Shown: positions 5,473 to 41,645 of the stretch, in pieces
How positions within the stretch are numbered: the stretch's first letter is position 1
How the letters are laid out: the number at the start of each line of letters is the position of its first letter
Assembly (NCBI GenBank): GCA_040217195.1
Contig: JAVJNR010000004.1
Coordinates: 1 to 64,000 of the forward strand
DNA: 64,000 nucleotides
DNA from: Leptospiraceae bacterium
GTDB lineage: Bacteria; Spirochaetota; Leptospiria; Leptospirales; Leptonemataceae
Reading direction: 5' to 3'
The notes under the pieces: model-generated
What the model was told of the DNA's origin: nothing
Seen by the model: the letters and a program-made list of their open reading frames with translations, nothing else
Databases searched by the model: none
Made by a program: the position numbers and the translations under genes

Positions 5473-5580
5473 GTTCGCCTTATTGCTGATTAATGACAAT
5501 AAGGCGAACCGGGGCGCTGAAAGTAAAAGGCCGCCTTATGGCTGCTTGATGACAATAACGAGCCCCGGGCGCCGAAGGCG
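5473..5580. repeat. pair of 37-bp inverted-repeat sites followed by a CGCCGAAGGCG hairpin
   Basis: GTTCGCCTTATTG-N11-CAATAAGGCGAAC at 5473-5509 (perfect 13-bp arms); degenerate duplicate at 5529-5565. Confidence 0.8.
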
Positions 5581-5637
5581 AATTCAATATCCAGACCATG
5601 GGGCGCCTCATTTCACCTCCCGCGAAGTACCTGCTCG

Positions 5638-5809
5638 CGAGCCAACGGCCTGGATTCCTACTGGTATTTCAGGTATCTGCTGGAAAAGTTAAGCTATCCT
5701 CAGAGCCGATCAGAATTTGAAGCGCTGCTTCCGCACCGGATTGATCCCAGCATCATATCCGAATATCAGAAGAACCAGAATTAGTCCAGAGGGAGGATTT
5801 GGCGCTTAC
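5638..5809 (+). mobile_element. IS66-family remnant (TnpC C-terminus and right end)
   Basis: Translates ANGLDSYWYFRYLLEKL...FEALLPHRI; ends GGCGCTTAC, the reverse complement of a GTAAGCG IS66-type terminus. Confidence 0.7.
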
Positions 5810-6087
5810 GGAGGTTCTCACAGCTCTCGCACCTCCTGCGCTTCGCTGCATAAGGGCATCCTTGCCCAAAAATGCCGCCGGAGGCGTGGGCGCCACGGAT
5901 GCCGAACATGGATGTTCCAATGTCGCCGAAGGCGAAAGGCCGGGCCAGGCGAAATAACAGTCCGCACCTGACTGTTGGAGTGTCAGAGCTATTACAACGA
6001 GGACCGGACTCATTCATCGATAGAGCCGGCGGGCGCCCATCGGTCGCGATCCGCACGCAAGATTAGCTCCGAATCCGTTCGTAGCCT

Positions 6088-6813
6088 TCAATCTATCTTC
6101 GGCAACGTACTCACATCCACAGTACTCTCATAACCGTTCCGGAGGCGCTCCTGGTAGGTTGCATCTTCAGCGATCATCGCCGCAAATCCCGGCTTATCCC
6201 AATAGCATTCGCCTGGCAATACTGGATTCTGATCTTGATACAACAGGCGGTAGTAATCCCAAATACAACTCCCATATGGGAAAAAATCTCCTGGATCGGC
6301 CCCGGTATCAACAAAGCGCAGGAAGTTCTCTGTAGTGAATCTAGTGAACTCGAATTTGTCATCACGCAACACCTGGTGGCGAACAACAAGAAACTTCAAC
6401 GCACCTCGGAAAAAGAGGAAAGCAACAGCAAGCCGTTCCCGGGTCTCCTGACCGGAGACACCCGCCCCGACAACCGCTTTCGACTTCCCACCAATGTAAC
6501 GTATCACCCGATCGATTGGGAAGTAATCACCATCAACCAGGTAAGGAATTGGCTTTTCGAAGGTAAGGTGCCCATTTGTATTCGGGTATTTCTCAACCAC
6601 TAATTCTGGGGCCATATCTCTCCTAACGAAACCACGCAACTCCACCAGGTCCAGAGTAACCGGCGGGCCGAACCTGGTTGTATCTTTCTCACGTGACTCT
6701 GCAGGCATGCCGGAAAACAGTAAAAATGCCGTTACCCCCAATGTAAATCTCCTGCTGCGCCCCAATCTACTTACAGTTCTCAATATGCTGAAAGCATTTC
6801 TCAAAAGCATCAT
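6088..6813 (-). CDS. exported putative immunity protein (lipase-toxin-associated family, member 1)
   Basis: GGAGG RBS, signal-like N-terminus, overlaps the toxin-fragment stop; close paralog of 37967-38668. Confidence 0.75.
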   Translation of the reverse strand: MMLLRNAFSILRTVSRLGRSRRFTLGVTAFLLFSGMPAESREKDTTRFGPPVTLDLVELRGFVRRDMAPELVVEKYPNTNGHLTFEKPIPYLVDGDYFPIDRVIRYIGGKSKAVVGAGVSGQETRERLAVAFLFFRGALKFLVVRHQVLRDDKFEFTRFTTENFLRFVDTGADPGDFFPYGSCIWDYYRLLYQDQNPVLPGECYWDKPGFAAMIAEDATYQERLRNGYESTVDVSTLPKID

Positions 6814-7130
6814 CGTATCCTCCGTCCAATTCATGGCCTGACCCGCTCCAACGGCCAGATTCCCCGTTAATATAATCGCGAACTCTTGAGGGATCTGTAT
6901 ACATCTCAGGCTGCTTCGAGGTATCTCTATGGGCCCAGGAGTCGTCTGGATTCCAATAATTGTGCCATTTCTTTACCAAATCCGTACGAATGGACTCGCG
7001 GTCCCTCTGGCCCGGAGCCGTCCCGTACGGGCCCGGCACATACTGAGCCCCGCCATACATGTATATCTCTGCATCGATATATTTCTGATGTATATAAAGA
7101 GCTCGGCCCACCACAACGGCCGCCTGACTA
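6767..7130 (-). pseudogene. C-terminal fragment of an alpha/beta-hydrolase toxin
   Basis: SQAAVVVG, MYGGA, YWNPDD, GSGH motifs parallel those of the 42619-44200 tip; 5' end truncated. Confidence 0.6.
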
Positions 7131-7210
7131 AGGATGTGCAGGAGGTGCGGAGCATCGAAAGGTTCCTAACGGGAGCCCAGCTACACGGATGTGGCCGGGC
7201 GAGCGTAACT

Positions 7211-8161
7211 CTACCCAAAGAACTCGGCGATTCTTTCTCTGGTTTCCTGATCTGGAAATTCCCCTCGGGCTGCATTCATATTGTCCAGAAGATGGTCGGG
7301 CTTTCCTGTTCCCGGTATGACACAGGTAACTGCAGGATGAGAAAGAATAAACTTTAGCATTGCATTGGACCAGCTCAGGATACCTGCCTTTCGCATCCAG
7401 GCTGGCAACTCCTGTCCCTGGACTTTCCTGAAAAGATCTCCGCCGCCAAAGGGACGGTTGATTAAAACAGCCACCTGCTTTTCCATGCAAAGTGGGAGTA
7501 ATTCCCTTTCTGCTTCGCGAGCCAGCACGTTGTAATTGAACTGGGCAAAGTCCACATCGTAATCATGAATGGCTTTCATTAGATTATCGTAGCCGCTCTC
7601 TGTATAATGGGTTATTCCTGTGTATCGAATCCGGCCGGTGGCTTTTAGCTCCTGCAAATAGGGCCAGTGAACTTCCAGGTCCAACAGATTGTGAACCTGT
7701 AGTAGATCGATTTCCTTGAGTAAGCTAAATGAATTTTGAATCTGCCTTCTGCCGGCTGTATCACCCTCGGTCCATACCTTGGTAGCCGTAAACAGATCCA
7801 GGGCCAGAGGGCTTTCCGGATCAAGGTTTCCCCGTAGTCGGCCTATCACTTCTTCGGCAAGACCATACATGGGGCTGCTATCCACCACACGTCCCCCCGC
7901 AGCATGGAAAAGCTCTAAAACCGTTCGTAGTCGAATCAAAGATTCAGGATCATCATGGTCGAAAGCCTGCCAGGTTCCCAGGCCCACCACTGGAATGGTT
8001 TCTCCATATCCCGGGATAGGTCGTTTTCTCAGTTCCTGGTCCGGTCTCGGAATTCCAAAAAGTTTTGATAGCTGCATGGGCTGAGTTAAGGTAATTCCAG
8101 CAGCCCCTCCGAGCAAGAGAAATCGACGAAGAAACTGGGCCCGGCTAAATTCGGAACTCAT
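7211..8161 (-). CDS. aldo/keto reductase
   Basis: VGLGTW, DSSPMYG.AE, ATKVW, IDLLQVHNL, VIPGT motifs; Tat-like N-terminal leader. Confidence 0.92.
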   Translation of the reverse strand: MSSEFSRAQFLRRFLLLGGAAGITLTQPMQLSKLFGIPRPDQELRKRPIPGYGETIPVVGLGTWQAFDHDDPESLIRLRTVLELFHAAGGRVVDSSPMYGLAEEVIGRLRGNLDPESPLALDLFTATKVWTEGDTAGRRQIQNSFSLLKEIDLLQVHNLLDLEVHWPYLQELKATGRIRYTGITHYTESGYDNLMKAIHDYDVDFAQFNYNVLAREAERELLPLCMEKQVAVLINRPFGGGDLFRKVQGQELPAWMRKAGILSWSNAMLKFILSHPAVTCVIPGTGKPDHLLDNMNAARGEFPDQETRERIAEFFG

Positions 8162-8444
8162 CCTATAAATGTATTCACTTCCAGACGATTGACCATCTCA
8201 GCTATACGGGAATTGAGTGCAAGGCCTCATAGGAGCATACACTTCGCGCCTCTGTTCGGCCGGGCAATGCTGAGAAGGTGCAGTGATCCATCAATCCTTT
8301 GAATGGATACCTCATTTCCTGCTTCATGAAAGCAGAAAGGGCATCGGCTCTGCTGCGGGATAACTTGAGGCCCTTCTGAATTTTTTCGGTTTTTTTCTTG
8401 CGCGACCATTGGTCAGGGGCTTTTGTATGAATATGGAAGTACGG

Positions 8445-8651
8445 ATGGCCAATGAACTGGGAATGAAGAATGTAAATTACTTCAAGCCATTGCAGAGCTC
8501 TCAGCCCACAGAGAATCCGGCTAACATTCCAGGAGTTCCCACTGCGGATCGCCAGCTGGCCGATCAAAGGCGAGCCATGACAGCGCTCAGTCCTAATGCA
8601 ACATCAGACCGATACCAGATAATCGGCGGCACAATAAACGTGATGGCCTGA
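8445..8651 (+). CDS. small hypothetical protein (start uncertain)
   Basis: Open frame in an otherwise empty interval, ending GGTINVMA. Confidence 0.5.
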   Translation: MANELGMKNVNYFKPLQSSQPTENPANIPGVPTADRQLADQRRAMTALSPNATSDRYQIIGGTINVMA

Positions 8652-8883
8652 CTTAGGCTTCTGAAGCCGATTTTTCAATTACTGCCTACTGCCGGCCTGC
8701 TAACGCTATACTTGTATATTAAATAGCATAACAACCGGTTTAAGTAGCATAAGCACCGAATCCACCCACATATGACGAATTTAACGGGCATTATGTCCGT
8801 TAAAAAAATGCGATTAAATGAAACGGATTGCCTACCGATGCATTCGTATAGGAATCAGGTTGTTTTGAATAGAAGAGAAAGGC

Positions 8884-9249
8884 TTACTCTTTATAGAATA
8901 GTTCCAGAAGATGGCCGTCCGGATCTGAAACCAGAAGAGACTCCCCGCCTTCAATTAGAAGAGGTCCTTTGATGATTTTGATTTCCCTTTGCTCTAACTC
9001 TTGAATGGCTTCCGTAAAGTCATCCACATCCAGAATAAAAGAAAGCGAATACTCACCTGGATTCTCAATTGAGGCAGTAAAATCAGCGATCAGGTTGAAT
9101 CGGAGGGCAACCGGGTCCAGTCGAACCAGAGCATGATTCTCAGATTCTTCGAGCAGCTCGAAGTCAAGCACCTCCGTATAGAACTCAACAGACCGTTTAA
9201 GATCGGATGAGCCAAGAGAGATGTGATGTAGTCCTTCAACGAGTATCAT
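8884..9249 (-). CDS. VOC/glyoxalase family protein
   Basis: LHHISL..SDLKRSVEFY..VL and DPDGHLLEL motifs. Confidence 0.92.
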   Translation of the reverse strand: MILVEGLHHISLGSSDLKRSVEFYTEVLDFELLEESENHALVRLDPVALRFNLIADFTASIENPGEYSLSFILDVDDFTEAIQELEQREIKIIKGPLLIEGGESLLVSDPDGHLLELFYKE

Positions 9250-9372
9250 AATTTCCTCTGGAAAAGCCAGATTTCGGTATCAATGGTCCAGGATCAATGA
9301 TTTTCCATAAACCAGCACACCCCTTAAGCATTCTAAAGGATGACCGAAAATGACATAGGCGCTATCGTAATC

Positions 9373-10662
9373 ATGAAAACTCGAAATGCAATTCTTTTCT
9401 CATCTATTCTGATTCTTATGCACATAAGTGGTGTTACAGGAAAACCGGTTCCTGTATCGCAATCCCCTTCTCTGACCAACCCGCCCCGGGGTTTAAATGA
9501 AAGCACAGAGGAAACCGTCCATTTTCGGTTCAAGTTATCCACAGGAGATGTTCTGACGGTAGATAAGATTCAGGACATTATCCTCGCTCGCAATGAATCC
9601 AGAGGCAGCAGGGAAGAAAGAAATAAGATTGTTCTAAAGGTAACCGAACGTTCGGATTCCGATCAACCGACTCAGGCACATGCCATCCTTTCGGGGCAAT
9701 TCCATACATACGCCCGCACTCCGGCAGGCCAGGGACCTTTCAAAAAAGAGCAGAGCTATGACAGTCAGTTCTCCATAAGCGACCTGGGGCATTATGAGGT
9801 ACCCGATCGATTTATTATGCCCAATCTGCGAAGTCTGCCCAGCTTTCCAGAAGAGGAAGTCAAGAAGGATCAAATATGGAAAGCACCTGGCATGGAGACT
9901 ATGGATCTGCAGGGCCATAAGATTAAAATCCCGATGACTGTGAAATACCAGTACATGGGCGAAGGCTGGATCATTGACCGTGATGGAAAGAAGCGTAAAG
10001 CTCATAAGATACAGTTTGCCTATAAATTTATTCATCCTGTGAATCGGCCGGGGTTTCCCCTGCGAAGGATTACAGGTATTTCCACGGATGAAATGTGGTT
10101 TGATGCGCAGTCCGGAATTCCCATATACGATGTTCAGAATATCCAGTACCGCTTTGAATCCGTAGGTCAGAAAGTGGATGGAATCTACCGAATTCATAGC
10201 TGGTATGATAAATCCAGAACAGTAAGCGAAGAGCAAAAAGAACAGATGGCAGAGAATATTCGCCAGGATCTGAAGGATAATGCGGATGATGTAAATGTGC
10301 GAAAAACCGATGAAGGTATTGCTCTGGATCTGAGTGATATATTGTTCGAGTTTGATTCAGCGGATCTAACTCCCAGAGCGCGGGCCACCATTGATGGAAT
10401 TGCAAAGATATTGAAACGTTATCCGGATCGAGAAATTCGTATCTCCGGTCATACGGACTCCACGGGACCGGATCAGTACAACCAGAAATTATCCGAGCAT
10501 AGAGCCAGAAGTGTTCTACAGGAATTGCAGAAGAATCATTCGTTTGATGCTACCCGGATGTCCTATAAAGGATTTGGAGAAGAAAAACCAATCGCATCCA
10601 ACGAATCAACGGAAGGGCGAGCAAAGAATAGAAGAGTTGAGATTCTGATCGTTACCGAGTAG
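9373..10662 (+). CDS. OmpA-family protein
   Basis: Signal peptide; C-terminal ILFEFDSA, GHTDSTG, NQKLSEHRA, NRRVEI. Confidence 0.92.
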   Translation: MKTRNAILFSSILILMHISGVTGKPVPVSQSPSLTNPPRGLNESTEETVHFRFKLSTGDVLTVDKIQDIILARNESRGSREERNKIVLKVTERSDSDQPTQAHAILSGQFHTYARTPAGQGPFKKEQSYDSQFSISDLGHYEVPDRFIMPNLRSLPSFPEEEVKKDQIWKAPGMETMDLQGHKIKIPMTVKYQYMGEGWIIDRDGKKRKAHKIQFAYKFIHPVNRPGFPLRRITGISTDEMWFDAQSGIPIYDVQNIQYRFESVGQKVDGIYRIHSWYDKSRTVSEEQKEQMAENIRQDLKDNADDVNVRKTDEGIALDLSDILFEFDSADLTPRARATIDGIAKILKRYPDREIRISGHTDSTGPDQYNQKLSEHRARSVLQELQKNHSFDATRMSYKGFGEEKPIASNESTEGRAKNRRVEILIVTE

Positions 10663-10785
10663 CCTGGATCATCCTCTCCAGCAGTCTGTAACGCGAAGTC
10701 CCGGCCTGTTCTCATTGGACGCCGTGGGGACGCACTGGGAAGCTTGACCCTGGTCGCGAAAGGCACTTACCTGGGGGCTCAGATC

Positions 10786-11385
10786 TCAGGCATCTCCATC
10801 GTGTAATAATGCCACACTTTGTTCTGAACGAAGATTGGGCAGAATACCGATTTTGCGTCTTCCCGAAAAGAAGGCTATATCTTCAATTACCAGATTCTTG
10901 GCCCTGGTAAAATCTTTGAAATCATGGATGGAAAAATACTGCAGATTGGGGCTTAAATACCAGGGATGGGGCATCCTGGTGGTGACGGGGCTTCGTCCTC
11001 GAAGAAGTATCTGAAACCGGGCACGCCAGTAAGCGAAATTGTTAAAACCGACTATGACTCTCTTGCCTACACGGAACGCTTCTTCCAGAACTTTCCATGG
11101 ATCAATGAGCTCTTGAAAAGTACCAATAAGCAATACATAGTCAAAGCTATTCTTTCCGTACTGATCCAGTCCATCCAGAATATCTCCCTGATGCACCACA
11201 AGCCCTCTTTCGATGCAACGGGCGGCCAGAGTGCCATCCTTTTCTACGCCTTCTGCTTCTACTTTTCTGTGCTCAACCAGTCTCTGTAAGAATGCTCCGT
11301 CACCGGTTCCCAGGTCCAGAACTCTGGATCCGGGAGGAACCCAGGCTGCCACTGTATCATACAGTGCCTGAATCATTTGCTGCAA
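10786..11385 (-). CDS. metW: methionine biosynthesis protein MetW
   Basis: VLDLGTGDG SAM-binding motif, NFAYWRAR, PWYLSPN; follows metX. Confidence 0.9.
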   Translation of the reverse strand: MQQMIQALYDTVAAWVPPGSRVLDLGTGDGAFLQRLVEHRKVEAEGVEKDGTLAARCIERGLVVHQGDILDGLDQYGKNSFDYVLLIGTFQELIDPWKVLEEAFRVGKRVIVGFNNFAYWRARFQILLRGRSPVTTRMPHPWYLSPNLQYFSIHDFKDFTRAKNLVIEDIAFFSGRRKIGILPNLRSEQSVALLHDGDA

Positions 11386-12571
11386 TTGCTCCCTGATCTC
11401 TCATATTCCTGTACTCCACATTCAGAAAGTTCCCGAGCACGCCAAACAATTCTACATTGTGGATTAGAAAAGAGTCATGTCCATTGGGTGTTTCCAGGTT
11501 AAGATAGGTTACCGTGACTCTGGACCGCTTCAATGCACGGACGAGTTCCCTGGACTGGGAAGGCGGATAAAGCCAGTCCGATTCGAAGCTTACCACCAGA
11601 AATCGTGCTTCCACCGAAGAAAAAACATCCTCTGGATTGTTTCCTGCCAGTAGATCAAACATATCCAGAGCTTTGGTGATGTAAAGATAGGAGTTGGGAT
11701 CAAATCGTTTTACAAAGCTTTCGCCCTGATAATGTAGATAGCTCTCAACGGAAAAGTACATGGGAAATAAATCTTCCCTGGAAGGAGGCCTCTGTTGTCT
11801 TCTTCCGAACTTATCCTGCATGGAGAATTCGGAAAGATAAGTAACATGAGCCACCATTCGAGCCACAGCCAGTCCATGTTCCGGTCGGCTCTCTTTGCTA
11901 TATTCACCGTCCTGCCATTTAGGATCATTCAATATTGCCTGGCGTCCCACTTCATTAAATGCGATTTGCATTGCCGAATGAGCCATGCATGAAGCCAGAG
12001 GAACACAGGTCTGCACCCGATCCGAATAATGGGTAGCCCATACCAGAGCCTGCATCCCACCCATGCTTCCACCGATCACGGAGAATAGTTTTTGAATCCC
12101 CAGATGATCTATTAGTTCTACCTGCCCTCGTACCATGTCTTCGATGGTTATGGGCGGAAATTCCATGCCATAGGGCTTTCCGGTGTCTGGATTGATGGAG
12201 GCAGGACCGGTGCTGCCATTACATCCTCCAATCACATTGGAACAGATTACAAAGAATTTATCTGTGTCGATGGTTTTGCCTGGACCAACATAAAGATCCC
12301 ACCAACCAGGTCGGCCGGTTTCTCCATGGGAGCCGGCCACATGGGCATTTCCGGAAAGAGCATGACAGATCAGGATGGCATTATCCTTTTCCGGACTGAG
12401 TTTCCCCAGGGTTAGATAATTGATTTCGATTTCTTTTAGTCGGTAGCCGGAACGAGTCTGAAATCCGGAAAGCCTGGCTGTGCGGGTGTGCACCTCTCCC
12501 AGGGGTGATACATACCCTTCAATCTTTCCGTCCTGTAGATCGCCTTCGATAGAACCGTCTCTTCTGTCCAT
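11357..12571 (-). CDS. metX: homoserine O-acetyltransferase
   Basis: LICHALSG, GGSMGGMQ, DWLYPP, GHDSFL. Confidence 0.96.
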   Translation of the reverse strand: MDRRDGSIEGDLQDGKIEGYVSPLGEVHTRTARLSGFQTRSGYRLKEIEINYLTLGKLSPEKDNAILICHALSGNAHVAGSHGETGRPGWWDLYVGPGKTIDTDKFFVICSNVIGGCNGSTGPASINPDTGKPYGMEFPPITIEDMVRGQVELIDHLGIQKLFSVIGGSMGGMQALVWATHYSDRVQTCVPLASCMAHSAMQIAFNEVGRQAILNDPKWQDGEYSKESRPEHGLAVARMVAHVTYLSEFSMQDKFGRRQQRPPSREDLFPMYFSVESYLHYQGESFVKRFDPNSYLYITKALDMFDLLAGNNPEDVFSSVEARFLVVSFESDWLYPPSQSRELVRALKRSRVTVTYLNLETPNGHDSFLIHNVELFGVLGNFLNVEYRNMRDQGAIAANDSGTV

Positions 12572-12677
12572 AGATAAAGGAGCACCGACCGAGAGCCGGT
12601 GCTTCTGTCCATAAAAGCCATGGAGGCTTTCGTTGAGAGCGATTTTTTGCCGGCTACTGGAAAAAGAGCCTGGGCCC

Positions 12678-13985
<1,308 letters not shown>

Positions 13986-14146
13986 TTATCTTTAGATAGG
14001 ATGATATTCCTTCTTTCCTGATTTTCTGCGCTCCCCGCAATACCGGGTCCAGTTCAGTAGCCATATCCTACCATATTACTATGAATTGGCAGGATAGGCT
14101 TTTCGCTGCCGTCGGTCAATCCTGAATCCGCCAGCCCGGCCACTGA

Positions 14147-15833: not shown

Positions 15834-15925
15834 AGTATTACTCCTGAGATCTGCTCTTTATGCCAGGTTAGAATTCCGGCCCGGTAAAGGACAATCTGGT
15901 TGGCTGCAGATTTCGCAGGCCAGTT

Positions 15926-16816: not shown

Positions 16817-17176
16817 TCAGTTACAAATTAGATATACGGGCCTTTAATTTCCATCAAAATGTGAATTGTTCTTTTGAAGGTACCGCAGGATCTGCATGGA
16901 GATAATGCGATAGTTTGCCCGTCTAATGGGGCATTCTATGTGCACATCCGGACCAGGAAGTAACATCAGGGAGGCCTGCGGCCTGGCCCGGGGTCGCATA
17001 AACAACCGGAATAAGTTTTTAACCGAACCGCCTCTTTCCCAGGGGAGGCCCATCTCCGGAGAAGCCCGGATCCAGAGTGGCAGCACCGATGCGCACGGAG
17101 GGGCTGATCCGGTAGGAGCCGTGGATGACGAACATGGATCGCGAGAGGCGGCGAGCCGGGGGCACGGTGCTTCGCG

Positions 17177-17356: not shown

Positions 17357-17367
17357 AGCAGGCTGAT

Positions 17368-18122: not shown

Positions 18123-18270
18123 GCACAAGCTGAGAGCTGGTGCTGCACAGGATGTGCGGAGGTCGCGGAGGACAGGATGCCGGACAAGGATGTCCCAATG
18201 TCGGCGAAGCCACGGAGGGCGGGAGCCGACGAGTCAAGGAGCGACCCAGGAGGGCCGGAGGCGGCCCAGT
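18123..18270. repeat. cluster of GGA-hairpin mini-elements
   Basis: GCACAGGATGTGC, GGACAAGGATGTCC, GCCACGGAGGGC; left end matches 41753-41787. Confidence 0.75.
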
Positions 18271-18316: not shown

Positions 18317-18427
18317 GTGCGGCTTATGGCCGAAACCGCGCTATAAGGCGAACCTCTGAACTCCCCCGGCAGAGGTTCGCATAATACCTGACTCCCCACA
18401 ATAACCCGCACCGGCCCGCCGAAGGCG
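18317..18427. repeat. pair of 37-bp inverted-repeat sites followed by a CGCCGAAGGCG hairpin
   Basis: Sites at 18317-18353 and 18375-18411, 21 nt apart. Confidence 0.75.
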
Positions 18428-20839: not shown

Positions 20840-21250
20840 TGGACCACTCCAATTTTTTCGGACACCTTTCCGGCAACCCTTTGCATTTCAAACTGGTCCG
20901 GGGATATATTCCCCAGGTAGCTATGCTTCCTTCTACGATTACAGAACAGCGCGCAATGGTTAAATATCCGATTACGAGCATCCTTGACGCTCTCGAACGA
21001 TCGGCAGGTCGTTTCCTTTTTCATCCTGCCGAAAAAGGACTCCGCACAAGCACGATCCCACCATGTCCCGTTTCAGCTCATGATCGATAGAAAAGCGTCG
21101 CCTCCCAGGATCTCCCGGAACTCATATTTCGCGTACTGACAACCACTGTCCGAATGAAAGATACAACTGGAATGGATGCCACGCTGAAAAGTAGCCATTT
21201 CAAAGGCAGCAGTAAAGTGCGAAGTCTCCATGTGCCAATTTATCGACCGC
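20840..21250 (-). mobile_element. degenerate partial copy of the IS3 element
   Basis: Right IR TGGACCACTCCAATTTTTTCGGACACC and decayed orfB 3' half, similar to positions 1-410. Confidence 0.9.
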
Positions 21251-21278
21251 CGGATCGCGGAGCGTGCGGGCTAAGACA

Positions 21279-30577: not shown

Positions 30578-30721
30578 GAATGAATCCTTCCGGGCGCCGT
30601 TTTCCTTTTGATCGGTACTATTGAACATTGCTATCTCCTGAACATTCCTGAAATTGGGCAGCTACCTGACCCGAATCGTGTACTATTTGGACTTCAATCC
30701 CTTTGCGGGCCATTGAGCGGA

Positions 30722-31069: not shown

Positions 31070-31072
31070 AAG

Positions 31073-32473: not shown

Positions 32474-32690
32474 TTTATCTAGAGCTCAACTTTAGAAATA
32501 ATCGGTAATGATTCGTAGCGATGCATATCCTTCATGAATCATGGAGCCTGGAGCAGACCAGGAAGTATGTATTGGAAAAAGAGCAATCCGCGGATCCCTA
32601 TCTCCCGGGCAATGAAAGCATCGGGCCCATCTTTTAAAAATAACAGATCGGCTAGCCCGTATCCACAATGACGATTCATGCAAGCTTATC

Positions 32691-32910
32691 AGATGCTCGC
32701 TTCCATCATAGCGCTGACTGCGAACTTTCCAGATCCCGGCTTCCGTCCTGGCGATGCCTGCGAGCTCTTCAGATCCCCGCTTCCGTCCTGACGCTGCCTG
32801 CGAGCTCTTCAGATCCCCGCTTCCGTCATGGCGCTGCCTGCGAGCTCTTCAGATCCCCGCTTCCGTCATGGCGCTGCCTGCGAGCTCTTCAGATCCCCGC
32901 TTCCGTCATG
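32691..32910. repeat. 40-bp tandem repeat, about 5.5 copies
   Basis: Unit AGATCCCCGCTTCCGTCATGGCGCTGCCTGCGAGCTCTTC at 32691, 32731, 32771, 32811, 32851 and partial 32891. Confidence 0.95.
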
Positions 32911-32973
32911 CTCTTCGGATATGACATTTCAGGTCGATCAATTCGACCAGGCCATCGGGCCGAAGACTTAGCT

Positions 32974-34347
32974 TCAAGCTTCCGTGCTTCCAGCATCCAG
33001 TAAATTATCAAAACGAAACAATTCAGGTCTGTAGGCCAGAAAAAATCCGCCGGTTCGACCGGCCCGGTATTTGGAAATAATGATCTCTGCCTGTCCGGAA
33101 TGCTCGGACTGATCTTCTCCATCGGCCGGAGCATCCCTGTGAATGAACATTACCATATCGGCATCCTGCTCCAGGGCGCCGGACTCTCTAAGGTCCGAAA
33201 GCTGGGGACGGGCGGATTCCCCTCTTCGTTGTTCCACTGAGCGGTTCATCTGCGAAAGAGCGAGAATTGGTACATCTTCTGACATGGCCAATTGCTTCAA
33301 TGCCCTGGATATACTGGCAACCTCCATCTGACGCCCAAACTTGCGGTTTTCTGGATCGCTCATTAACTGAAGATAGTCCACAACAACAAGACCCAGCTTC
33401 TGTCCTTTCTGACGAAGCTCCATGGCAAGCTTTCGCGTTCTGCTAATACAATCCCAGATGGAAAGTGCTCCAGTATCATCCATGAATATGGGACTTTTAA
33501 ATATTGCATCCATGGAAGCCTGGATAGAGGCTTTCTTACCCTGAGGGATATGCCCTCTCTTAAGGTCTGCATGGTTGGTCTGGGAATGGGCACAGAGCAC
33601 GCGAAGCAAGACTTCCAGCCGGCTCATCTCCAGAGTAAAGAATAGGATGGGTGCCGGTTGCTCTGAAATGGCCAGATTCATGGCAATATTCATGGCAAAG
33701 GTAGATTTTCCCATACCAGGACGTGCTGCGAGAATCAAGAGTTCGCCGCCTCGCAGACCGGAGGTTCGATTATCGAACTCTTCGTACCGAGTTGGCAGTC
33801 CGGACATACCACCCCGGGCTGCGATTAGATGCTCAAAGTAATCGAAGAAGTCCGATTGCATTTCTGCAGCCGATAGAACGCCACGAGAACTTGTCTTGGA
33901 TGTAATCTTGAGGATTGATTCTTCAACCTGCTTGAGAAAGCTTCCTTCATTCTCCTGAGGTTCCCTGGCATCCACCTCTATCTGATGGGCTGCATTAATC
34001 AGATCCCTGCGAAGTGCAATATTTCGGATTCTCTCCGCCTGCAGAGGAGCATTGTTCGGCGCCAGCACATCCTCCACCAATCGCATGATGTAAGCATTCC
34101 CTCCAGCAGGGTTTAGCTGGCTACGATCCTGAAGGTACTGAACTACCGTGATTGGATCAATGTCATTTGAAGAGTCGTTGCTTAGCGTGAGGATAGCATC
34201 GTAAATGAAGCGATGGCCATCGGAAAAGAAATCATTTCGACTGATAATAGAACTCACCTGAATGGTAAGATCTGGCCTTAAAATAAGAGAGCCGAGCACC
34301 TGGCGCTCGGCTTCTATATCGGCAGGGACCTGGCGCGGATCAGCCAC
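32974..34347 (-). CDS. dnaB: replicative DNA helicase
   Basis: AARPGMGKS, VDYLQL, LSQMNR, SDLRESGALEQDAD. Confidence 0.97.
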   Translation of the reverse strand: MADPRQVPADIEAERQVLGSLILRPDLTIQVSSIISRNDFFSDGHRFIYDAILTLSNDSSNDIDPITVVQYLQDRSQLNPAGGNAYIMRLVEDVLAPNNAPLQAERIRNIALRRDLINAAHQIEVDAREPQENEGSFLKQVEESILKITSKTSSRGVLSAAEMQSDFFDYFEHLIAARGGMSGLPTRYEEFDNRTSGLRGGELLILAARPGMGKSTFAMNIAMNLAISEQPAPILFFTLEMSRLEVLLRVLCAHSQTNHADLKRGHIPQGKKASIQASMDAIFKSPIFMDDTGALSIWDCISRTRKLAMELRQKGQKLGLVVVDYLQLMSDPENRKFGRQMEVASISRALKQLAMSEDVPILALSQMNRSVEQRRGESARPQLSDLRESGALEQDADMVMFIHRDAPADGEDQSEHSGQAEIIISKYRAGRTGGFFLAYRPELFRFDNLLDAGSTEA

Positions 34348-34358
34348 GCTGGTATTCC

Positions 34359-34934: not shown

Positions 34935-35071
34935 GGTCCTTTCCTTTCATCTCTGCCCGGCACTTCCAGCGGCTCTTCGCGGGTTCCAGGTCTTCTATTC
35001 TAAAAAACAACTTTGTATAATCTATGCACTAAAAGAAATACTGATTCGATTCTCAGATTTACGATCCGCCA

Positions 35072-35560
35072 TTAGAACGGAATATCGTCATCTTCAGGCA
35101 ACGGTCCCTGATCCACATAGGGAGGCTCCTGATACCCGGAATCGTTACTCTGGCCGGAAGAGCCGTAGCCTCCGCCTGAGCTAAAACCACCACCGGAACC
35201 GGAATTGCTAAATCCGCCTCCGCCACCGCCCTGAGCACTTCCCAGAAGCTGCATGTTTTCCACCGTAACTTCTACAATGGACCGTTTTCCTTCCGGGCTA
35301 TCCCAGCTTCGCTGAGTCAAACGGCCTTCCACCGCTATTTGTTTGCCCTTCTGGCAATATTGCTGAATGATCTCCGAAAGCCGGCCAAAGGAAACACAGT
35401 TTATAAAGCTGGTCTCTTCCCGCTTATTCCCATCTACAACATAGGTGCGGTTATTGGCAATGCTGAACTTACAGAAACTCTTGCCATTCTGCGTTTGCTT
35501 GATTTCTGGATCCCGCACCAGCCGACCGATGAGGACCACCCGATTTAAGTCGGATGCCAT
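35072..35560 (-). CDS. ssb: single-stranded DNA-binding protein
   Basis: LNRVVLIGRLVRDPE; C-terminal DDDIPF. Confidence 0.97.
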   Translation of the reverse strand: MASDLNRVVLIGRLVRDPEIKQTQNGKSFCKFSIANNRTYVVDGNKREETSFINCVSFGRLSEIIQQYCQKGKQIAVEGRLTQRSWDSPEGKRSIVEVTVENMQLLGSAQGGGGGGFSNSGSGGGFSSGGGYGSSGQSNDSGYQEPPYVDQGPLPEDDDIPF

Positions 35561-35562
35561 GA

Positions 35563-35838
35563 TCAGGCCACAGATTTAATCATAAACTGAAGAAGTCCAC
35601 CCTGGATTTTCAGTTCCCGGGAGATTTCTTTCACGGACTCAGGAGGCATTTTACACTGGAATATATGGTAGCTTCCTGCACTCAAGTCCTGACGAGCGTA
35701 GCTCAGGTTCTTCCGTCCCCAGGTTTCCTGGTTAGAAATCTGCCCTTTGTATCGAGTAACGATTTCCTGCACGCTTTTGACGGTCTCGTCCACGGACTCA
35801 GACTCTTTCAATATGGTAATTAGTTCGTAATTCTTCAT
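35563..35838 (-). CDS. rpsF: 30S ribosomal protein S6
   Basis: MKNYELITIL, WGRKNLSY; upstream of ssb. Confidence 0.9.
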   Translation of the reverse strand: MKNYELITILKESESVDETVKSVQEIVTRYKGQISNQETWGRKNLSYARQDLSAGSYHIFQCKMPPESVKEISRELKIQGGLLQFMIKSVA

Positions 35839-35996
35839 TTTGGCCCTTTTCCGGTAAAGGATACCATACGGAACAAGGCCATCGCTGTGTCAAGTAGAAG
35901 GTGCAGGATCGGTACTGGAGCAGAGTTCCTGGAGCCGCGCCGCCGCCTGATGGGAATCTCATTGACGGAGGATCGTGGCGGACCGGCTACTGGGAA

Positions 35997-37103
35997 ATGC
36001 GATTTGTGGCTTTGCTTGCCTGGATCCTTTTTGGGTTCACCTTTCTTCTGGCCGCTCGCTGGCCAGCTCTTGCCCGAAGTCTGGGCGGACTGTCCAGGTT
36101 ACATAGAATTCATCACATCCTGGGATTGAGCACCGGAGCCCTGGCCGTGTTGCATACCTTGCATCAGATCTGGAAGGATCCCGAAGTAGCCTTTTACTTT
36201 GAGGATCCGTTCTTGCTTCTGGGCTGGATCTCGCTTCTACTTCTGGTGGCCGGACTGGGCCTCTCATTTCTTGGCCGATTGCATCATCGATGGTGGCTCT
36301 TGCTGCACTGGAGTCTGGCCGGTGCCTATCTGGGAGCTTTGTTCCATAGTTACGGATTTCTGCAACATGGAAGATGGCATGAAGTTGCATTCCTTGCGGG
36401 CCTGGGCCTGGGAGGCCTGGGTCTAACGCTCATTTTTCTATACCGCTGGAAAGGACAGAACTGGGTGGTACAGGAAGTGAAGAATACAGGTTCAGGACTG
36501 TTCGAGCTGATCCTGAAACCTGAAATTGCCAATGCCAATGCTCCCCGGGCCGGCTCTTTAATCTATCTGCAATTTGGATCTGGATTCACGTCCAACTGGC
36601 ATCCATTTTCCGTAGCCTCTTGCAGAATGAGTCCTGAACTTCATGTTTTGATCAAGAATGCTGGCCTGGATACTTCGCATTTGCTGGATATGAAACCAGG
36701 ACATGTCTTGCGATTGCAGGGTCCTTTCGCCGAGTTTCAGGTATCGCAGGATCCTCAGCTATGGGTAGCTGCAGGCACCGGGCTGGCTCCCTTCCTGGGA
36801 ATGGCTCGATGTTTTGATTTTACTGGTGCCGGCACAGTAGAACTCTACTTTTTTGAAGCGAAACCAGAGCCCATCGTAGAAGCAGAACTGGACCGAATTT
36901 CACAGAGTCATCCAGAGTTTCGCTGGAAGGCCCATTACGGTAAGTCCGCAGACTTTTCAGAAATGGTAAAATCTGCCAGAAGCCAGCAAGGACAGATACT
37001 GATTTGTGGTTCCCCTGGATTCATGAAAAAGGCTCGAATGTCATTGCACGCTGCTCAAATTTCTGGAGAAAGAATCCATACAGAGGAATCCGTACCATGG
37101 TAG
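35997..37103 (+). CDS. ferric-reductase-like transmembrane / FAD-NAD(P) oxidoreductase
   Basis: His-containing TM helices, WHPFSVAS, GPFAEF, AAGTGLAPF, LICGSPGF. Confidence 0.88.
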   Translation: MRFVALLAWILFGFTFLLAARWPALARSLGGLSRLHRIHHILGLSTGALAVLHTLHQIWKDPEVAFYFEDPFLLLGWISLLLLVAGLGLSFLGRLHHRWWLLLHWSLAGAYLGALFHSYGFLQHGRWHEVAFLAGLGLGGLGLTLIFLYRWKGQNWVVQEVKNTGSGLFELILKPEIANANAPRAGSLIYLQFGSGFTSNWHPFSVASCRMSPELHVLIKNAGLDTSHLLDMKPGHVLRLQGPFAEFQVSQDPQLWVAAGTGLAPFLGMARCFDFTGAGTVELYFFEAKPEPIVEAELDRISQSHPEFRWKAHYGKSADFSEMVKSARSQQGQILICGSPGFMKKARMSLHAAQISGERIHTEESVPW

Positions 37104-37489
37104 TTAGAAAACAAGCGATTAAGAATGCAAGACCAGATAGGCCAAATATGAAATCCAACAGTTTCTTCGTTGATGAACGCTTCCCGCTCATCGCTATTTT
37201 GATTCTTCTTTTTTTGGGCAGCCCTGTCTGGTCCAATACCCGAACGATAAGCGCAGGCGAACTGGCTCAGCATTCCACTTCCAATAGCTGCTGGATTGCC
37301 ATTTCTGGCAGCGTCTATGACATCACCAATTATCTAAGCGAGCATTCCAACGATCATAATTTCAGCTTATTACCCTGGTGTGGAAAAGATGCGACGAAGG
37401 GCTGGAAGGACAAGGATGGAAAAGGAAAGCCGCACAGCCGAAAGGCAACTATTCAGCTAAAACGCTACAAGATCGGGGAGCTTGAATAG
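37097..37489 (+). CDS. cytochrome b5-like heme-binding protein
   Basis: ELAQH...CWIAISGSVYDIT.YL..H, CGKDAT, HSRKA, YKIGEL. Confidence 0.88.
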   Translation: MVVRKQAIKNARPDRPNMKSNSFFVDERFPLIAILILLFLGSPVWSNTRTISAGELAQHSTSNSCWIAISGSVYDITNYLSEHSNDHNFSLLPWCGKDATKGWKDKDGKGKPHSRKATIQLKRYKIGELE

Positions 37490-37585
37490 GAAAGACACCT
37501 GGCTACGAATATTCAGGGATGATGCCCGGTGATAGGCATTTCCTGGTCTCGGCAACGGAATGGAATCTGATACAATACAAGGCAG

Positions 37586-37836
37586 GTTCGCCTTAATCCC
37601 GATTCGCCGCGCAAATGTGAACCGCTGTGAAGTGCGGGGCCCAGCCGCGAGTTCGCATAATAACGCCTCACCGTGCAAATACGAACCGCCGGGAAGTGCG
37701 GGGTCCCAGCCACGAGTTCGCATAATAACGCCTCACCGCGCAAATACGAACCGCCGGGAAGTGCGGGGGCCAGCCACGAGTTCGCATAATAACGCCTCAC
37801 CGCGCAAATGCGAACCGCCGTGAAGAGCGGGGCCCC
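37586..37836. repeat. tandem array of four 64-65 bp units, each containing the GTTCG...GAAC site
   Basis: Units start at 37586, 37651, 37716 and 37780; core GTTCGCATAATAACGCCTCACCGCGCAAATRCGAAC. Confidence 0.92.
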
Positions 37837-37966
37837 GGACCTGCCCGGTTACCTGGAACCCCATCAACGGCTTCAGCAGGGATGTCTGCCCGAGAGCAGA
37901 GAAATTCTGGATTCTGTTCCAGGCAAAAGAATCCTTTCGTCGGACCAGAATTGGCGGCCTGCGATT

Positions 37967-38668
37967 CTATTTCTCTGGCAAGGTACTCAAATCCACCTGG
38001 CTTTCGTAGCCGTCTTTGAGACGATTTTGATAGTGGCGATCTCCGGAAACTCTTACGCCAAAGGCCGAAGAATCCCAATAACAGTGCCCTTCCAGAATTG
38101 GCGGTGTGTCCATATAGAGCTTCCTGTAGAGTTGCCAAACACAGCTACCATTCGGGAAAAAGTCGCCGGGATCAGCCCCGGTGGCAATAAATTGCAGGAA
38201 ATTTTTGGTGGTATGTTCTGTGAAAATGAAATCGTCCTTCTCTCGCACCTGATGTCGAACTACAAAAAGCTTTAGCTTTCCCTGAAAGAACAGAAATGTG
38301 ATGTCCATTCGCTCCTGAGTCTGATAGCCGGAATAACCTTCGCCCCTCACTTCCCTGGAATGAGCGCCCAGATACCGAATCACTTCATCCACAGGATACA
38401 GAGTTCCATTCATTAAGTATGGGATAGGTTCAGCAAAATTGAGCCGACCGTTGGTCCTGGGATACCGATTCAGAACTTCCTCCGGCGCCATATCCTTTCG
38501 AACAATAGTCTTCAATTCCGCCAGGTCGAGATTCACTGGGGGGCCCAGCCTTTCCTGATCACCTGGCCTGGGCTGCCGGGCATGAGCCATTTGAGTACAA
38601 AGCCCAAATAGGAAAACGGGGCAGACTAGCAAGAGGCAAATAATGAATCTATGGAGAGCGAAACGCAT
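37967..38668 (-). CDS. exported putative immunity protein, family member 4
   Basis: GGAGGA RBS, signal peptide; GPPVNLDLAEL..VRKDMAPE...YPRTNGRL.F.EPIPYL shared with 6088-6813. Confidence 0.78.
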   Translation of the reverse strand: MRFALHRFIICLLLVCPVFLFGLCTQMAHARQPRPGDQERLGPPVNLDLAELKTIVRKDMAPEEVLNRYPRTNGRLNFAEPIPYLMNGTLYPVDEVIRYLGAHSREVRGEGYSGYQTQERMDITFLFFQGKLKLFVVRHQVREKDDFIFTEHTTKNFLQFIATGADPGDFFPNGSCVWQLYRKLYMDTPPILEGHCYWDSSAFGVRVSGDRHYQNRLKDGYESQVDLSTLPEK

Positions 38669-38807
38669 TTTATATCCTCCTACATCCATGGCAGATCAAT
38701 CGGAAAGTAATACCAGGTTAGCCACGCTCCGCAATGCTACTGGAGCCCATAGCCTAATCAATGGTCTCGACTTTCGGGCGAACTGGCCGCAAGGTCGCAA
38801 TCCGCAG

Positions 38808-38844
38808 GTTCGTCTTAAACCCCGTTCACTGCGTAAATGCGAAC
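38808..38844. repeat. 37-bp inverted-repeat site
   Basis: GTTCGTCTTAAACCCCGTTCACTGCGTAAATGCGAAC, preceded by a half site GGGCGAAC ending at 38783. Confidence 0.75.
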
Positions 38845-38924
38845 CGGCCGCTGGGCTCACCGTTTAAGCGTTCCGGCTACGAAGCAATTACCGAAATCGT
38901 ATGAAGATCAGCAGTGCCGTCTAA

Positions 38925-39310
38925 TCAGCGGACGTACGGTTCTCGAACCTGCAGGTCATCGATTGCTTCATAATGGTTCTGATTGAACGTATAGATAATA
39001 CCCCCACTAGCCACAGCGATTTGCCCGATCAGGGCATCCAGAATTCCCGTACCGTGACTGAGATACAATCGGGCAAAGCTATCAAACGCCTTTCTGCATG
39101 CATCCTGATCCGGCCAGAGCAGCTGAGCACCAGAAAAGAAAGCCTCTATTTGCCTCTGCTCCTCAAGCTTCCGGGCTCCTTGAATCAGCTCCATGGCAAC
39201 GAATCCCGGAATACCGAGCGGGATCGATGCAAGGTTTCTCAACCACTGCAGGGCTGGCGGATGCCCTCGGAGGGGGCATCAATAAGCACGTCCGTATCGA
39301 CGATTATCAT
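38925..39310 (-). pseudogene. PIN-domain (VapC) toxin, frameshifted in a C run
   Basis: MIIVDTDVLIDA, then two extra C (GATGCCCCCTCCGA) before LRGHPPALQWL...MELIQG...ILDALIG..TFNQNHY. Confidence 0.85.
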
Positions 39311-39546
39311 TCGCGATTCTGAGCTTGATGACGCAGAGCCCTGGCAAATCCCATGGTGTCATTAATATCTTTGCGATCTTTCCAGAGACCGACGATGTTC
39401 GAAGAAAGCCGGGCATCCGCCGGAAGCCCGGAGCCACGCGCAATTTGAATAAAGATCTGGAGTCGATCACCTCGGCGTACTGGCAATCCGGAAAGATGAA
39501 GCTCACCGTCCTCTTGAACTGCCTGCTCCAATCGTATCACTTCCAT
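39307..39546 (-). CDS. putative antitoxin
   Basis: VQEDGELHL..LP...GD, VGLWKDRKDI; ATGA overlap with the PIN start. Confidence 0.8.
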   Translation of the reverse strand: MEVIRLEQAVQEDGELHLSGLPVRRGDRLQIFIQIARGSGLPADARLSSNIVGLWKDRKDINDTMGFARALRHQAQNRE

Positions 39547-39590
39547 GTGATAAAGCTGAGTGCTTTGCGCGGCTCAGTCGACCATTTTTC

Positions 39591-39875
39591 CACGGCGGTC
39601 ATGTAGGCAAGTATGAGCGAGGCCAGGTTCTGCCCAACGGAGATACACTCATCCAGATTGCCCGGACTCTCGAAGTCTCTCTGGATTACCTGCTTCTGGA
39701 CAGCCAGTCCTCCGAAAACCCGGCTGCCAAAATCCAGGACCGGGAACTCTTACAGGGATTTGAAATCGTAGACAAGATGCCGGACAAAGACCGGGAAACC
39801 ATCAAGTCGCTCATTGATGCCTATATCAAGAAAAGGCAGATTGAAGGGATCATGACCGAGAAGTCGGCCTTGTAG
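39591..39875 (+). pseudogene. XRE-family repressor, 5' truncated
   Basis: HVGKYERGQVLPNGDTLIQIARTLEVSLDYLL...DRELL...IKSLIDAYI; no start codon. Confidence 0.85.
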
Positions 39876-40011
39876 AGGGCCTGAAGGCATTCTCTATGGG
39901 AAAGCCTTCGAAGGATTGTGCGCAAGAATGGGAACGTTATCGCTTGATCAGATGAGTTTTTCGGGCCTACGTGGTCCCGCGCGCGGTGGGTGGAGCGCGC
40001 GGGTTAACAGA

Positions 40012-40185
40012 TTACTTCGGCTGCTTACTATCCTGATACATCTTCTGATACTTTTCGGGGATATTGGCTCCAATATACTTCTGAAATTCTTCGAAGTTCA
40101 TGCCTTCTGTTTATTTGCTGATCTGATCGCGAATTTCTCGCATGCTGGCAACCGCATCAAAGTCTTTTTCCTTCCTGGCGTGCAT
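40012..40185 (-). pseudogene. small antitoxin-like protein, nonsense at codon 25
   Basis: TAA at 40111-40113; paralog of 4146-4308. Confidence 0.65.
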
Positions 40186-40195
40186 GAGGAGAGGC

Positions 40196-40360
40196 TTATC
40201 GACCATTCCTAGAACTTGAAGTGCGGCCCTGGGGAACTATCTTGATTTCGGGGCGAGGAGTACGCGGTGGAGCTTTCCGACCGCCCCTGCGGACCTTCAC
40301 TTCTGCCAGAGGAGATGGGCCGGTACCGGTTGATTTAGATTTCTGATTCTTTTCGGACAT
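40196..40360 (-). CDS. 54-aa basic, Pro/Gly-rich micropeptide (not in the ORF track)
   Basis: GAGGAG RBS; MSEKNQKSKSTGTGPSPLAEVKVRRGGRKAPPRTPRPEIKIVPQGRTSSSRNGR. Confidence 0.7.
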   Translation of the reverse strand: MSEKNQKSKSTGTGPSPLAEVKVRRGGRKAPPRTPRPEIKIVPQGRTSSSRNGR

Positions 40361-40371
40361 TTTTAGACTCC

Positions 40372-41031
40372 TCAAGCCTCAGAATGAACACTGGAGGCCG
40401 GACTGGCAACAGGAATTTCCATACTCAACTCATTGGGCTGACGAGAAATATAGAGATGCGGCACAGAATACAGAAGCTTCCCGGTTTCATTGGAATAGAC
40501 TCTTACATCCCGCATCAGTAACTCTCGATCCTGACCGGAATCCGAGAAGATGGCAACCGAGCCAAAATATACCAGTCCAATCCGGTGGTCCCGAACTATG
40601 ATCCAGTCAAAGGCAGGATCGGGAATATTGTGAAAATGAGTCCAGACATCCGCATCGCCGAAATGGTTTGTAAGGTGTAATGCATGCCCCACGCGGTTGA
40701 TCCACTTATGGGTATGAATGTAGGTCGCAATAAACGAGATAATCACCCCGGTAGCTGCTGCTCCAAACACCTCGGCCGGATTGAGCTTCTGCTCCTCGTC
40801 CAGCAGTACATCGAAGAAAACGAAATCCGGAATACCCGAAAAGACCAGAGATAGAAGCCAGATGAAGATTCCATACAGCCCATAGCTGAAGACAGCAAAA
40901 ACGATGATCTCCAGGTAATCTTCCCAGTCCTTCCGGGGGTTACGACCGCGCATAAGCCTGAACAGAGAACTCGCAATAATTCCAGGAAGAAGCAGAAAGA
41001 TAATGCGAATTAGAAAGCCAGTTACACTCAT
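40372..41031 (-). CDS. DUF6338-like membrane protein, copy 2
   Basis: Paralog of 4444-5151. Confidence 0.75.
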   Translation of the reverse strand: MSVTGFLIRIIFLLLPGIIASSLFRLMRGRNPRKDWEDYLEIIVFAVFSYGLYGIFIWLLSLVFSGIPDFVFFDVLLDEEQKLNPAEVFGAAATGVIISFIATYIHTHKWINRVGHALHLTNHFGDADVWTHFHNIPDPAFDWIIVRDHRIGLVYFGSVAIFSDSGQDRELLMRDVRVYSNETGKLLYSVPHLYISRQPNELSMEIPVASPASSVHSEA

Positions 41032-41064
41032 AGAATTCTCGCCAAAAATGAAATACGTATCTGC

Positions 41065-41457
41065 TCAGTCAAACAGGCCATCCTGACCCAGCCTTTCCAG
41101 CACAGACTTCTCCTCTTTCCTTGCCTTCTTTAATTCCTCTTCCAGCAGAGAGATCACGTTTCTGGTCGCGGCCAGTTGCCCCTTTAACTTCTCCACTTTC
41201 TTACGATCCTTCTGCGTAAGCTGTACGGATGAATCCGCCGCGCGGGATTGGCCTGGTTCGATCTTGCCTTTACCAGAAGCAGTCGGAGACTTCTGCTTTT
41301 TCTTTAGATCGGATACCAGGCGTTTGGCCGTACCTTCCGTTACCTGAACTTTGGACTTCTTCTGGATTTCCTCTGCAAGAGAGCTTTCCCCCTGAAGAAG
41401 TTCATTGAACTTCTTGGATGCCTGTCTGTGATCGGAGCCCGGGTTTTCACGGTTCAT
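41065..41457 (-). CDS. Lys-rich coiled-coil hypothetical protein (possibly a 5'-truncated remnant)
   Basis: 130-aa ORF with a degenerate copy at 5185-5460. Confidence 0.55.
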   Translation of the reverse strand: MNRENPGSDHRQASKKFNELLQGESSLAEEIQKKSKVQVTEGTAKRLVSDLKKKQKSPTASGKGKIEPGQSRAADSSVQLTQKDRKKVEKLKGQLAATRNVISLLEEELKKARKEEKSVLERLGQDGLFD

Positions 41458-41550
41458 TGAACCTTGATTCTTTCCCCGGCGGCCGGATCCCAGGGGCTAG
41501 ATGGGTCGATGACCGGCGTTGCGGGCGGGTCCTTTCTGAACCCGGGCTGG

Positions 41551-41645
41551 TTTCGCCTTAGATCCTCCTCCACGCTCTAACCCGAACTCCGGGGAGCCAC
41601 ATCCCCCGGTTCGTATGATGTCCCACACTGTGCTTTAAACAGAAC
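41551..41645. repeat. pair of 37-bp inverted-repeat sites
   Basis: TTTCGCCTTA...CCCGAAC at 41551-41587 and GTTCGTATGA...ACAGAAC at 41609-41645, 21 nt apart. Confidence 0.75.

Follow-up and report, generated by a model that had tools for sequence, protein, structure and literature searches.

In the genome of a Leptospiraceae bacterium, a 36/37-bp inverted repeat recurs beside toxin and immunity genes within the window studied here (contig JAVJNR010000004.1, positions 1 to 64,000). The same unit forms an accessory region of about 200 bp between an integrase gene and the attI crossover of an integron-like system, in all five genomes in which this region was readable: the source genome G000 and four others of its genus (G001, G002, G004 and G005; G001-G005 were among the genomes compared). 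Each unit is a pair of inverted boxes of tyrosine-recombinase type, 16-17 bp apart, which would permit binding and not recombination. The most likely binder would be the integron-like integrase of the genus, with an accessory role at attI; from the sequence evidence we give the integrase a probability of about 0.5. The original prediction had taken the units for binding or crossover sites of a recombinase encoded elsewhere that shuffles toxin, immunity and toxin-antitoxin (TA) modules. That they shuffle toxin modules proved wrong; that they are recombinase sites holds, though in a different location.

Four tyrosine-recombinase matches were obtained in G000: a XerD-like protein, a XerC-like protein, a 347-aa SAM_4 integrase on contig C6 and a 225-aa protein consisting of the catalytic domain only. 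The SAM_4 profile search returned chiefly other integrases. A motif search of the G000 open reading frames gave no credible serine recombinase, for which no profile search was run. Downstream of the C6 integrase gene (G000:C6:2980-4023), and co-directional with it, were a region of about 230 bp, the G|TT crossover and a run of cassettes. The cassettes were bordered by attC-like sites of 234 bp with R'', L'', L' and R' boxes, and the bottom strand of these sites forms a long hairpin when folded. We counted 278 attC-like starts in G005 and three assembled ones in G000, all on C6. The integrase scored 182.7 bits on the integron-integrase profile TIGR02249, below the cut-off of 265, and lacked the IntI insertion when aligned with XerC/XerD, indicating an integron-like system rather than an IntI integron. 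Judged by its layout, the C6 system probably works like an integron of a non-IntI, rAID (recombinase-associated acquired interbacterial defence) type, so that the predicted recombinase encoded elsewhere, running an integron- or rAID-like system, was found. As far as rAID-1 of Bacteroidales is described (10.1101/471110), the C6 system shares with it a 5' Xer-like recombinase, co-directional genes and repeated intergenic sites, and its co-oriented layout matches that described for Treponema-type integrons (PMC3607928). In contrast, the window islands are not part of a C6-type layout, and the available portions of these two sources mention no dispersed, terminus-biased repeats. The huge array with its non-IntI, co-oriented recombinase lies at about G005:C4:4256000-4505000 (L079, L334, L335) and G000:C6:1-4023 (L118). 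One G000 cassette encodes a LexA-like protein.

The attI regions of the five genomes aligned almost gap-free. Arms were located at -197, -183/184, -169/170, -132/133, -119, -106, -69, -65, -28 and -17 from the crossover, each scoring at least 3 bits in three to five of the five genomes. The region held three 36-bp units, of which the final two were separated by 5 bp and stopped 27 bp short of the crossover; in G004 it stood after a first cassette with unchanged geometry. The attI core consisted of an arm, 6 bp and a second arm. On the unit matrix, its left arm in three genomes reached 12.0, 9.1 and 7.4 bits, and 7.5 bits were obtained for the common attC R'' box, bearing out the earlier suggestion that the arms resemble tyrosine-recombinase boxes. 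Among the dispersed arrays, a 6-bp core beside units was found at attI alone. A 20-kb slice of the array with 23 attC sites contained no unit, and neither did a secondary cassette site (L333:9226-10977; G005:C4:574227-575998), which in G005 consists of two cassettes far from the integrase. In attI1 of class 1 integrons, two accessory boxes, DR1 and DR2, favour attI x attC recombination, as described in PMC8946536. Like them, the boxes reported here are extra integrase-type sites upstream of the core at fixed distances and are not crossovers. By that description, however, attI1 has two direct repeats, whereas about ten boxes, mostly inverted, span about 200 bp here; the class 1 integrase has the IntI insertion that the C6 integrase lacks, and dozens of further chromosomal copies occur here.

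To count the copies, a half-site matrix was seeded solely with the 11 sites of the original prediction, run on G000 at a cut-off of 20 bits, and iterated. With the seed matrix, 36-bp matches numbered 17 and 37-bp matches 47; no other length gave more than 3, and a shuffled genome gave none. After iteration there were 82 units (27 of 36 bp and 55 of 37 bp) compared with 1-2 per shuffle (n = 3), grouped into 28 loci of one to nine units. When lengths of 26-57 bp were allowed, 36/37 bp accounted for 82 of about 100 matches in G000 and for 155 of 172 at the loci of relatives. Over 237 units from 81 loci of the genus, the arm read R-G-T-T-C-G-(C)-(C/A)-T-(T/A)-(A/T) and the centre was nearly free. 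The two arms of a unit paired no more than base frequencies predict, indicating a double-stranded protein site and not a hairpin; the unit is a putative protein-binding site with the look of a recombinase site. Its spacer was 16-17 bp between inverted arms, compared with 6 bp in a crossover site, about one helical turn too long for crossover, suggesting that the unit is bound and not recombined. Unit centres were unrelated between loci, tandem arrays were homogenised within a locus, and arrays were gained or lost outright between species. The idea that every locus derives from a single transposed master was rejected: the best centre identity across loci was 11.5 against 10.6 in the null, with a single clear duplicate pair.

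The host dif, recognised by cross-species conservation, was a 28-bp site identical in G000 and G005 and located at the switch of the FtsK-orienting polar sequences (KOPS). The family form, RCTTCCGATAA-N6-TTATGTC(T/A)CA(T/C), was found in 40 of 42 genomes, and the E. coli-type dif pattern had no credible match in G000 or the genus. Copies at G000:C5:423391-423418, C8:51859 and C9:32124 suggest that C8 and C9 are separate replicons; neither carried a unit. Units and dif share 11-bp Xer-type inverted arms in identical helical phase, but dif has a 6-bp spacer, both unit arms are of one type, and the host dif lies elsewhere. The likeness of the motif to a XerC arm, claimed earlier, held for what we take to be the E. 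coli-type arm and not for the host dif arm. On the unit matrix the dif arms scored at most 2.6 bits (XerC side) and at most -12 (XerD side), while integron boxes reached 7.5-12. In 89 of the 90 XerC-side dif arms listed, CC stood where units have CG (99% and 94%), the search pattern itself requiring CC. Host XerC or XerD might bind the units without recombining them, as XerD does at XDS sites, and the B. subtilis precedent (PMC11840125, as described there), the Xer-box-like arms and the terminus bias reported below fit such a role. These dif scores, and the family-wide occurrence of XerC/D when the motif is not family-wide, make it very improbable.

All 28 G000 loci were at least 1.1 Mb from oriC, leaving an origin-centred gap of 2.41 of 4.30 Mb (P about 6e-9) when contigs were ordered by 20 G005 probes and dnaA placed at C2:75 kb. 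Pattern searches found 21 loci in G005, which spared 2.23 Mb around dnaA (P 1.3e-4). No such bias was seen for other tandem repeats (28 vs 29) or for intergenic space (189 vs 178 kb), and the unit zone covered about 45% of the chromosome. Eleven of the 21 G005 loci shared their intergenic space with a G000 locus, though the genes were about 77% identical and unit centres had diverged. Ter/Tus-like polarity was rejected, both unit orientations occurring on one skew. This bias resembles, by analogy, a pattern otherwise known only from dedicated terminus systems such as MatP/matS and XerD/XDS, which prevent SMC from occupying the terminus (PMC11894783, PMC11840125, as described). Common features are repeated sites confined to the terminus side and absent around oriC, and Xer-like boxes used without recombination. 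Unlike the sites of those descriptions, the units form tandem arrays, are far more numerous, occupy a much larger zone and are tied to an integron, and their arms mismatch the XerD box of the genus. Neither the repeat, nor such an attI, nor a Leptospirales terminus system turned up in the literature searched (mostly open papers), where XDS and rAID-1 were compared by description.

A different Xer-like protein could coat the terminus half as a MatP- or XDS-like organiser and also act as a host accessory factor of the integron. Its gene is linked to mfd (G000:C4:235170-235844; L186) and was present in G000 and five of the six other genomes of the genus, including G003. The first catalytic Arg is changed to Gln and both His are lost, making DNA binding its likeliest job; within the genus it has no N-terminal domain, which most family orthologues keep. 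ArgR and PepA serve as accessory factors at cer. Terminus-biased sites would suit such an organiser, as would a Smc-like gene (G000:C6:64516-67294; 926 aa, short), scpB and an exact parS 37 kb from dnaA. However, orthologues occurred across the family without the motif, and genomes with short versions (G019, G022, G206 and G286) gave 0-4 weak matches. No unit lay upstream of the mfd-linked gene itself, the Pfam SMC hinge profile matched in none of five genomes, the Smc-like protein included, and the unit zone is far wider than the terminus domains described. We consider this binder unlikely. An AlphaFold model of the protein had a mean pLDDT (predicted local distance difference test) of 43 and was not used. 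Near another Xer gene, two genes were found directly upstream of xerC in the genus (L120:2-1865; G000:C4), presumably WYL/PafBC-like.

At some loci the units were also in phase with a promoter. Of the 31 occurrences of TTGAC(A/T) at 442 unit ends, 19 stood 20-24 nt beyond the unit and 7 stood 13 nt beyond it, 26 in all; 0.9 was expected for five offsets, and the counts include orthologues and tandem copies and correspond to about nine independent loci. One unit-linked promoter was a 12/12 match to sigma-70, and the -35 placement was conserved at orthologous loci. These observations, and the solitary intergenic site that precedes a gene in the Leptospira family, would suit operators of a dimeric transcription factor, with the arrays and the attI copies secondary. 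However, only 3 of the 28 G000 loci lay between divergent genes (P 0.054) and 10 between convergent ones (P 0.061). Several unit-linked promoters pointed towards a convergent gene and into its 3' end, which together with the apparent scarcity of divergent positions makes a plain regulon unlikely. Neighbouring genes of the loci had no common pathway, one G005 array lay within a coding sequence and kept its frame, a regulon would not be missing from half of the chromosome, and the units differ from the Leptospira LexA1 box CTnnACnnnnGTnnAG as given in PMC4756842. Operators are a distinctly unlikely explanation. At lysS, a sigma-70 promoter between two units faced the 3' end of the gene and was kept in three genomes (L073:5354-5498; G000:C5:500463-500607); a small or antisense RNA is possible there. 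Upstream of rtcB, two modules of unit and promoter (G000:C5:169425-170027) enclosed a GC-rich structured stretch that may be a non-coding RNA. In G000 and G005 alike, units immediately preceded a YhgA/Rpn-family gene (G000:C10:288236-289419; L066).

Neutral repeats with no selected binder, of REP (repetitive extragenic palindromic) or satellite kind, would account for arrays that are homogenised, gained and lost, one of them in a gene, and non-coding satellite families are described in Leptospira interrogans (PMC6749651, as far as described). As we understand REP elements and BIMEs (bacterial interspersed mosaic elements), they too are made of short palindromes repeated in tandem between genes, mostly where the flanking genes are tandem or convergent. 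The units differ in showing no hairpin covariation and no common tetranucleotide tag, and no Y1 transposase was found in five genomes. Fixed spacing around a free centre, base-exact geometry at attI, conserved positions and an origin exclusion not shared by other repeats also speak against neutrality, to which we give very little chance. In G004:C13 (L084:6663-10083), a coiled-coil gene and a unit pair were amplified together in tandem, in five copies.

The 36/37-bp repeat appears, from its distribution, to be a property of one marine spirochaete genus. Exact matches numbered 5-26 in five of the six other genus genomes, and the sixth had near matches. Eighteen genomes from other genera in the family had no exact match, and none of 400 genomes of the phylum had more than a few matches; most Leptospira and Brachyspira-like matches lay inside coding genes. 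The strict pattern, run on 185,579 genomes, returned 23 stretches. Ten were in four records labelled Leptonemataceae, Leptospiraceae or Spirochaetaceae, and the remaining 13 were singletons in unrelated taxa, about as many as chance would give (about 17 estimated). Viral contigs gave 5 single matches. In a genus of the Leptospira family, 11 of the 20 genomes had a very similar 37-bp site ahead of one particular gene; the context was checked in nine, and G026 had an extra, non-complementary copy. This site (L105-L112, L190-L193, L223) preceded, by about 53 bp, a gene for a 278-aa product that belongs to no Pfam family. A second look-alike in G393 stood upstream of a gene that is presumably patatin-like.

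Under the integrase reading, the accessory region of about ten boxes would load the integrase at attI and favour cassette insertion, as DR1/DR2 do at attI1. Binding-only copies would have arisen at many other loci and multiplied locally in tandem, and those in the terminus half would be kept by selection on arms and spacing. The dispersed copies would most likely park and titrate the integrase near the large cassette array, and some sit in phase with a sigma-70 promoter; by analogy, positioning of the integrase or marking of the terminus are further candidate roles. Several observations weigh against this account. Two of the five attI left arms and all right arms scored low (-6.0 to 4.7 bits), which leaves room for an accessory binder other than the integrase. 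In other genera, the seven readable downstream regions of related integrases (41-49% identity) held scattered arms and no 36-bp unit, and the Leptospira-family site had no integron adjoining. G003 (78% complete) had units and no integrase match. Promoter phasing fits a regulator equally well. Among 40 loci of relatives mapped to the chromosome (of 50 examined, a non-random sample), two (L038 and L085) lay within 0.9 Mb of oriC, and no factor tested accounts for an integrase needing terminus-biased sites. Tentatively, and with the odds against it, the superintegron integrase or a dead paralogue may have been domesticated as a chromosome-organising or regulatory protein, its attI accessory box having reached dozens of set positions where it would mark the terminus half and flank promoters; cassette shuffling would then be linked to chromosome architecture. 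Through the five-genome conservation, the rAID-type integrases, which are poorly understood, gain a defined long attI of many boxes. An integrase without the IntI insertion can evidently run an array of nearly 280 cassettes, one that IntI-based searches would fail to recognise as a complete integron. With the same box across half of the chromosome, a site and three named candidate binders are available for terminus organisation in Leptospirales.

The toxin islands in the window were real mosaics of modules shared across species, and they are remnants of an XRE/primase/recombinase/toxin element; the primase, recombinase and toxin labels are our assumption from the sequences, which the XRE and HINT labels are not. 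The crossover model, in which the units are the points where a recombinase joins toxin-tip, immunity and TA modules, draws on this mosaicism, on three different XRE truncations 10-35 nt from a unit block, and on 9 of the 28 G000 loci lying near island markers (HINT, PIN, XRE or island repeat), which cover 1.2% of the genome. This enrichment is partly circular, 6 of the 9 near-marker loci being circular since the markers were taken from the window, and the other 19 loci were more than 2.5 kb from any marker. Of 83 distinct homology edges, 4 fell within 15 bp of a unit, compared with a background of 3.9%. Island parts without contig cover in a sequencing run were excluded from the evidence. In run X1, one contig skipped the third island and joined the array at 37586 to 44219 with 41 letters between, which would suit the crossover model at one of the two junctions; the right-hand one (44190-44219) was at another repeat, 2.5 kb from any unit. 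Island edges clustered at this junction repeat, GC(T/A)ACGAAGCA (3600, 17176, 38876 and 44190), at the HINT C-terminus and at a different dispersed repeat; in run X3 two copies of the junction repeat were joined (44192 to 38879). The GC(T/A)ACGAAGCA repeat is a better candidate for the island shuffling junction than the 36/37-bp unit. Further, the unit spacer is too long for crossover, centres differ between loci, and no attC was found in island genes, the three of G000 being all at C6. Three small island remnants in the origin half were without units and six in the terminus half had them. The motif was thus genome-wide and the module boundaries of relatives lay off the units, both named in advance as refuting outcomes by the original prediction. 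The crossover model is largely refuted and we regard it as highly unlikely; the copies in the islands are passengers and not crossover points.

The units had alternatively been suggested to be merely the XRE operator. This was rejected: 12 regions around related XRE genes in nine other genomes contained no 36/37-bp unit, and G002 had 15 exact unit matches and no match to the window XRE. The XRE gene at 41655 is a remnant of the Leptospirales XRE/toxin element and not the unit binder.

In the window, the strict pattern gave 6 matches against 0.26 expected; one of the 6, at 33741 (38 bp, inside dnaB), is probably chance. All 11 sites first listed carried the motif, nine of them at 26-31 bits, while those at 5529 and 41609 were degenerate; a twelfth, at 16992, had been overlooked, and the first tandem copy was 37 bp long (Table 1). 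The GTTCG...CGAAC ends were exact in 5 of the 11 and inexact in the rest. The perfect arms at 5473, three pairs spaced 19-21 nt apart and two CGCCGAAGGCG hairpins after pairs were as first described. Avoidance of housekeeping blocks held within the window, but genome-wide most G000 loci were intergenic between housekeeping genes. Abutment on truncated genes held for the XRE fragment and not for the 5185-5460 remnant, whose homology to the paralogue at 41065-41457 stopped at 5420, 53 bp from the unit. The array at 37586 sits downstream of a cytochrome b5-like gene; two units occupied the corresponding gap in G005 and in G002, which lacks the third island.

Table 1. Repeat units and associated features in the window.
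Feature	Position	Strand	Remarks
37-bp unit, perfect 13-bp arms	5473..5509		28.6 bits; near-identical copy at G000:C4:616065
Degenerate second unit, followed by CGCCGAAGGCG hairpin	5529..5565		9.6 bits; 82% to 5476-5513
37-bp unit, left edge of middle island	16992..17028		23.8 bits; overlooked in the original prediction
37-bp unit, first of an island-type pair recurring in relatives' islands	18317..18353		30.7 bits; homologous blocks L259, L261, L262, L268
37-bp unit, second of pair, hairpin after	18375..18411		27.5 bits
Tandem array of four units (37586-37622, 37651-37686, 37716-37751, 37780-37815), period 64-65	37586..37815		28-30 bits each
37-bp unit	38808..38844		30.8 bits
37-bp unit, first of pair; one block with XRE fragment, kept in G004	41551..41587		26.4 bits; L263
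Degenerate second unit, 10 nt 5' of truncated XRE	41609..41645		11.3 bits
5'-truncated XRE gene with in-frame insertion of another repeat	41655..42017	+	Pfam HTH_3; full-length relatives
GC(T/A)ACGAAGCA junction repeat, where island modules join	44190..44200	+	further copies 3600, 17176, 38876

Rfam and ARAGORN searches gave no match in the window. A second family of dispersed palindromic repeats was located at 3366-3420, 5800-5950, 18124-18260, 41753-41821 and 44009-44063; it inserts into genes (in frame in the XRE gene) and contains the CGCCGAAGGCG hairpin. An IS3-family element was found at the contig start (30-1167), with a broken copy at 20840-21251 in the middle island. Between radA and dnaB, a 40-bp tandem repeat was present in 5.6 copies (32689-32910).

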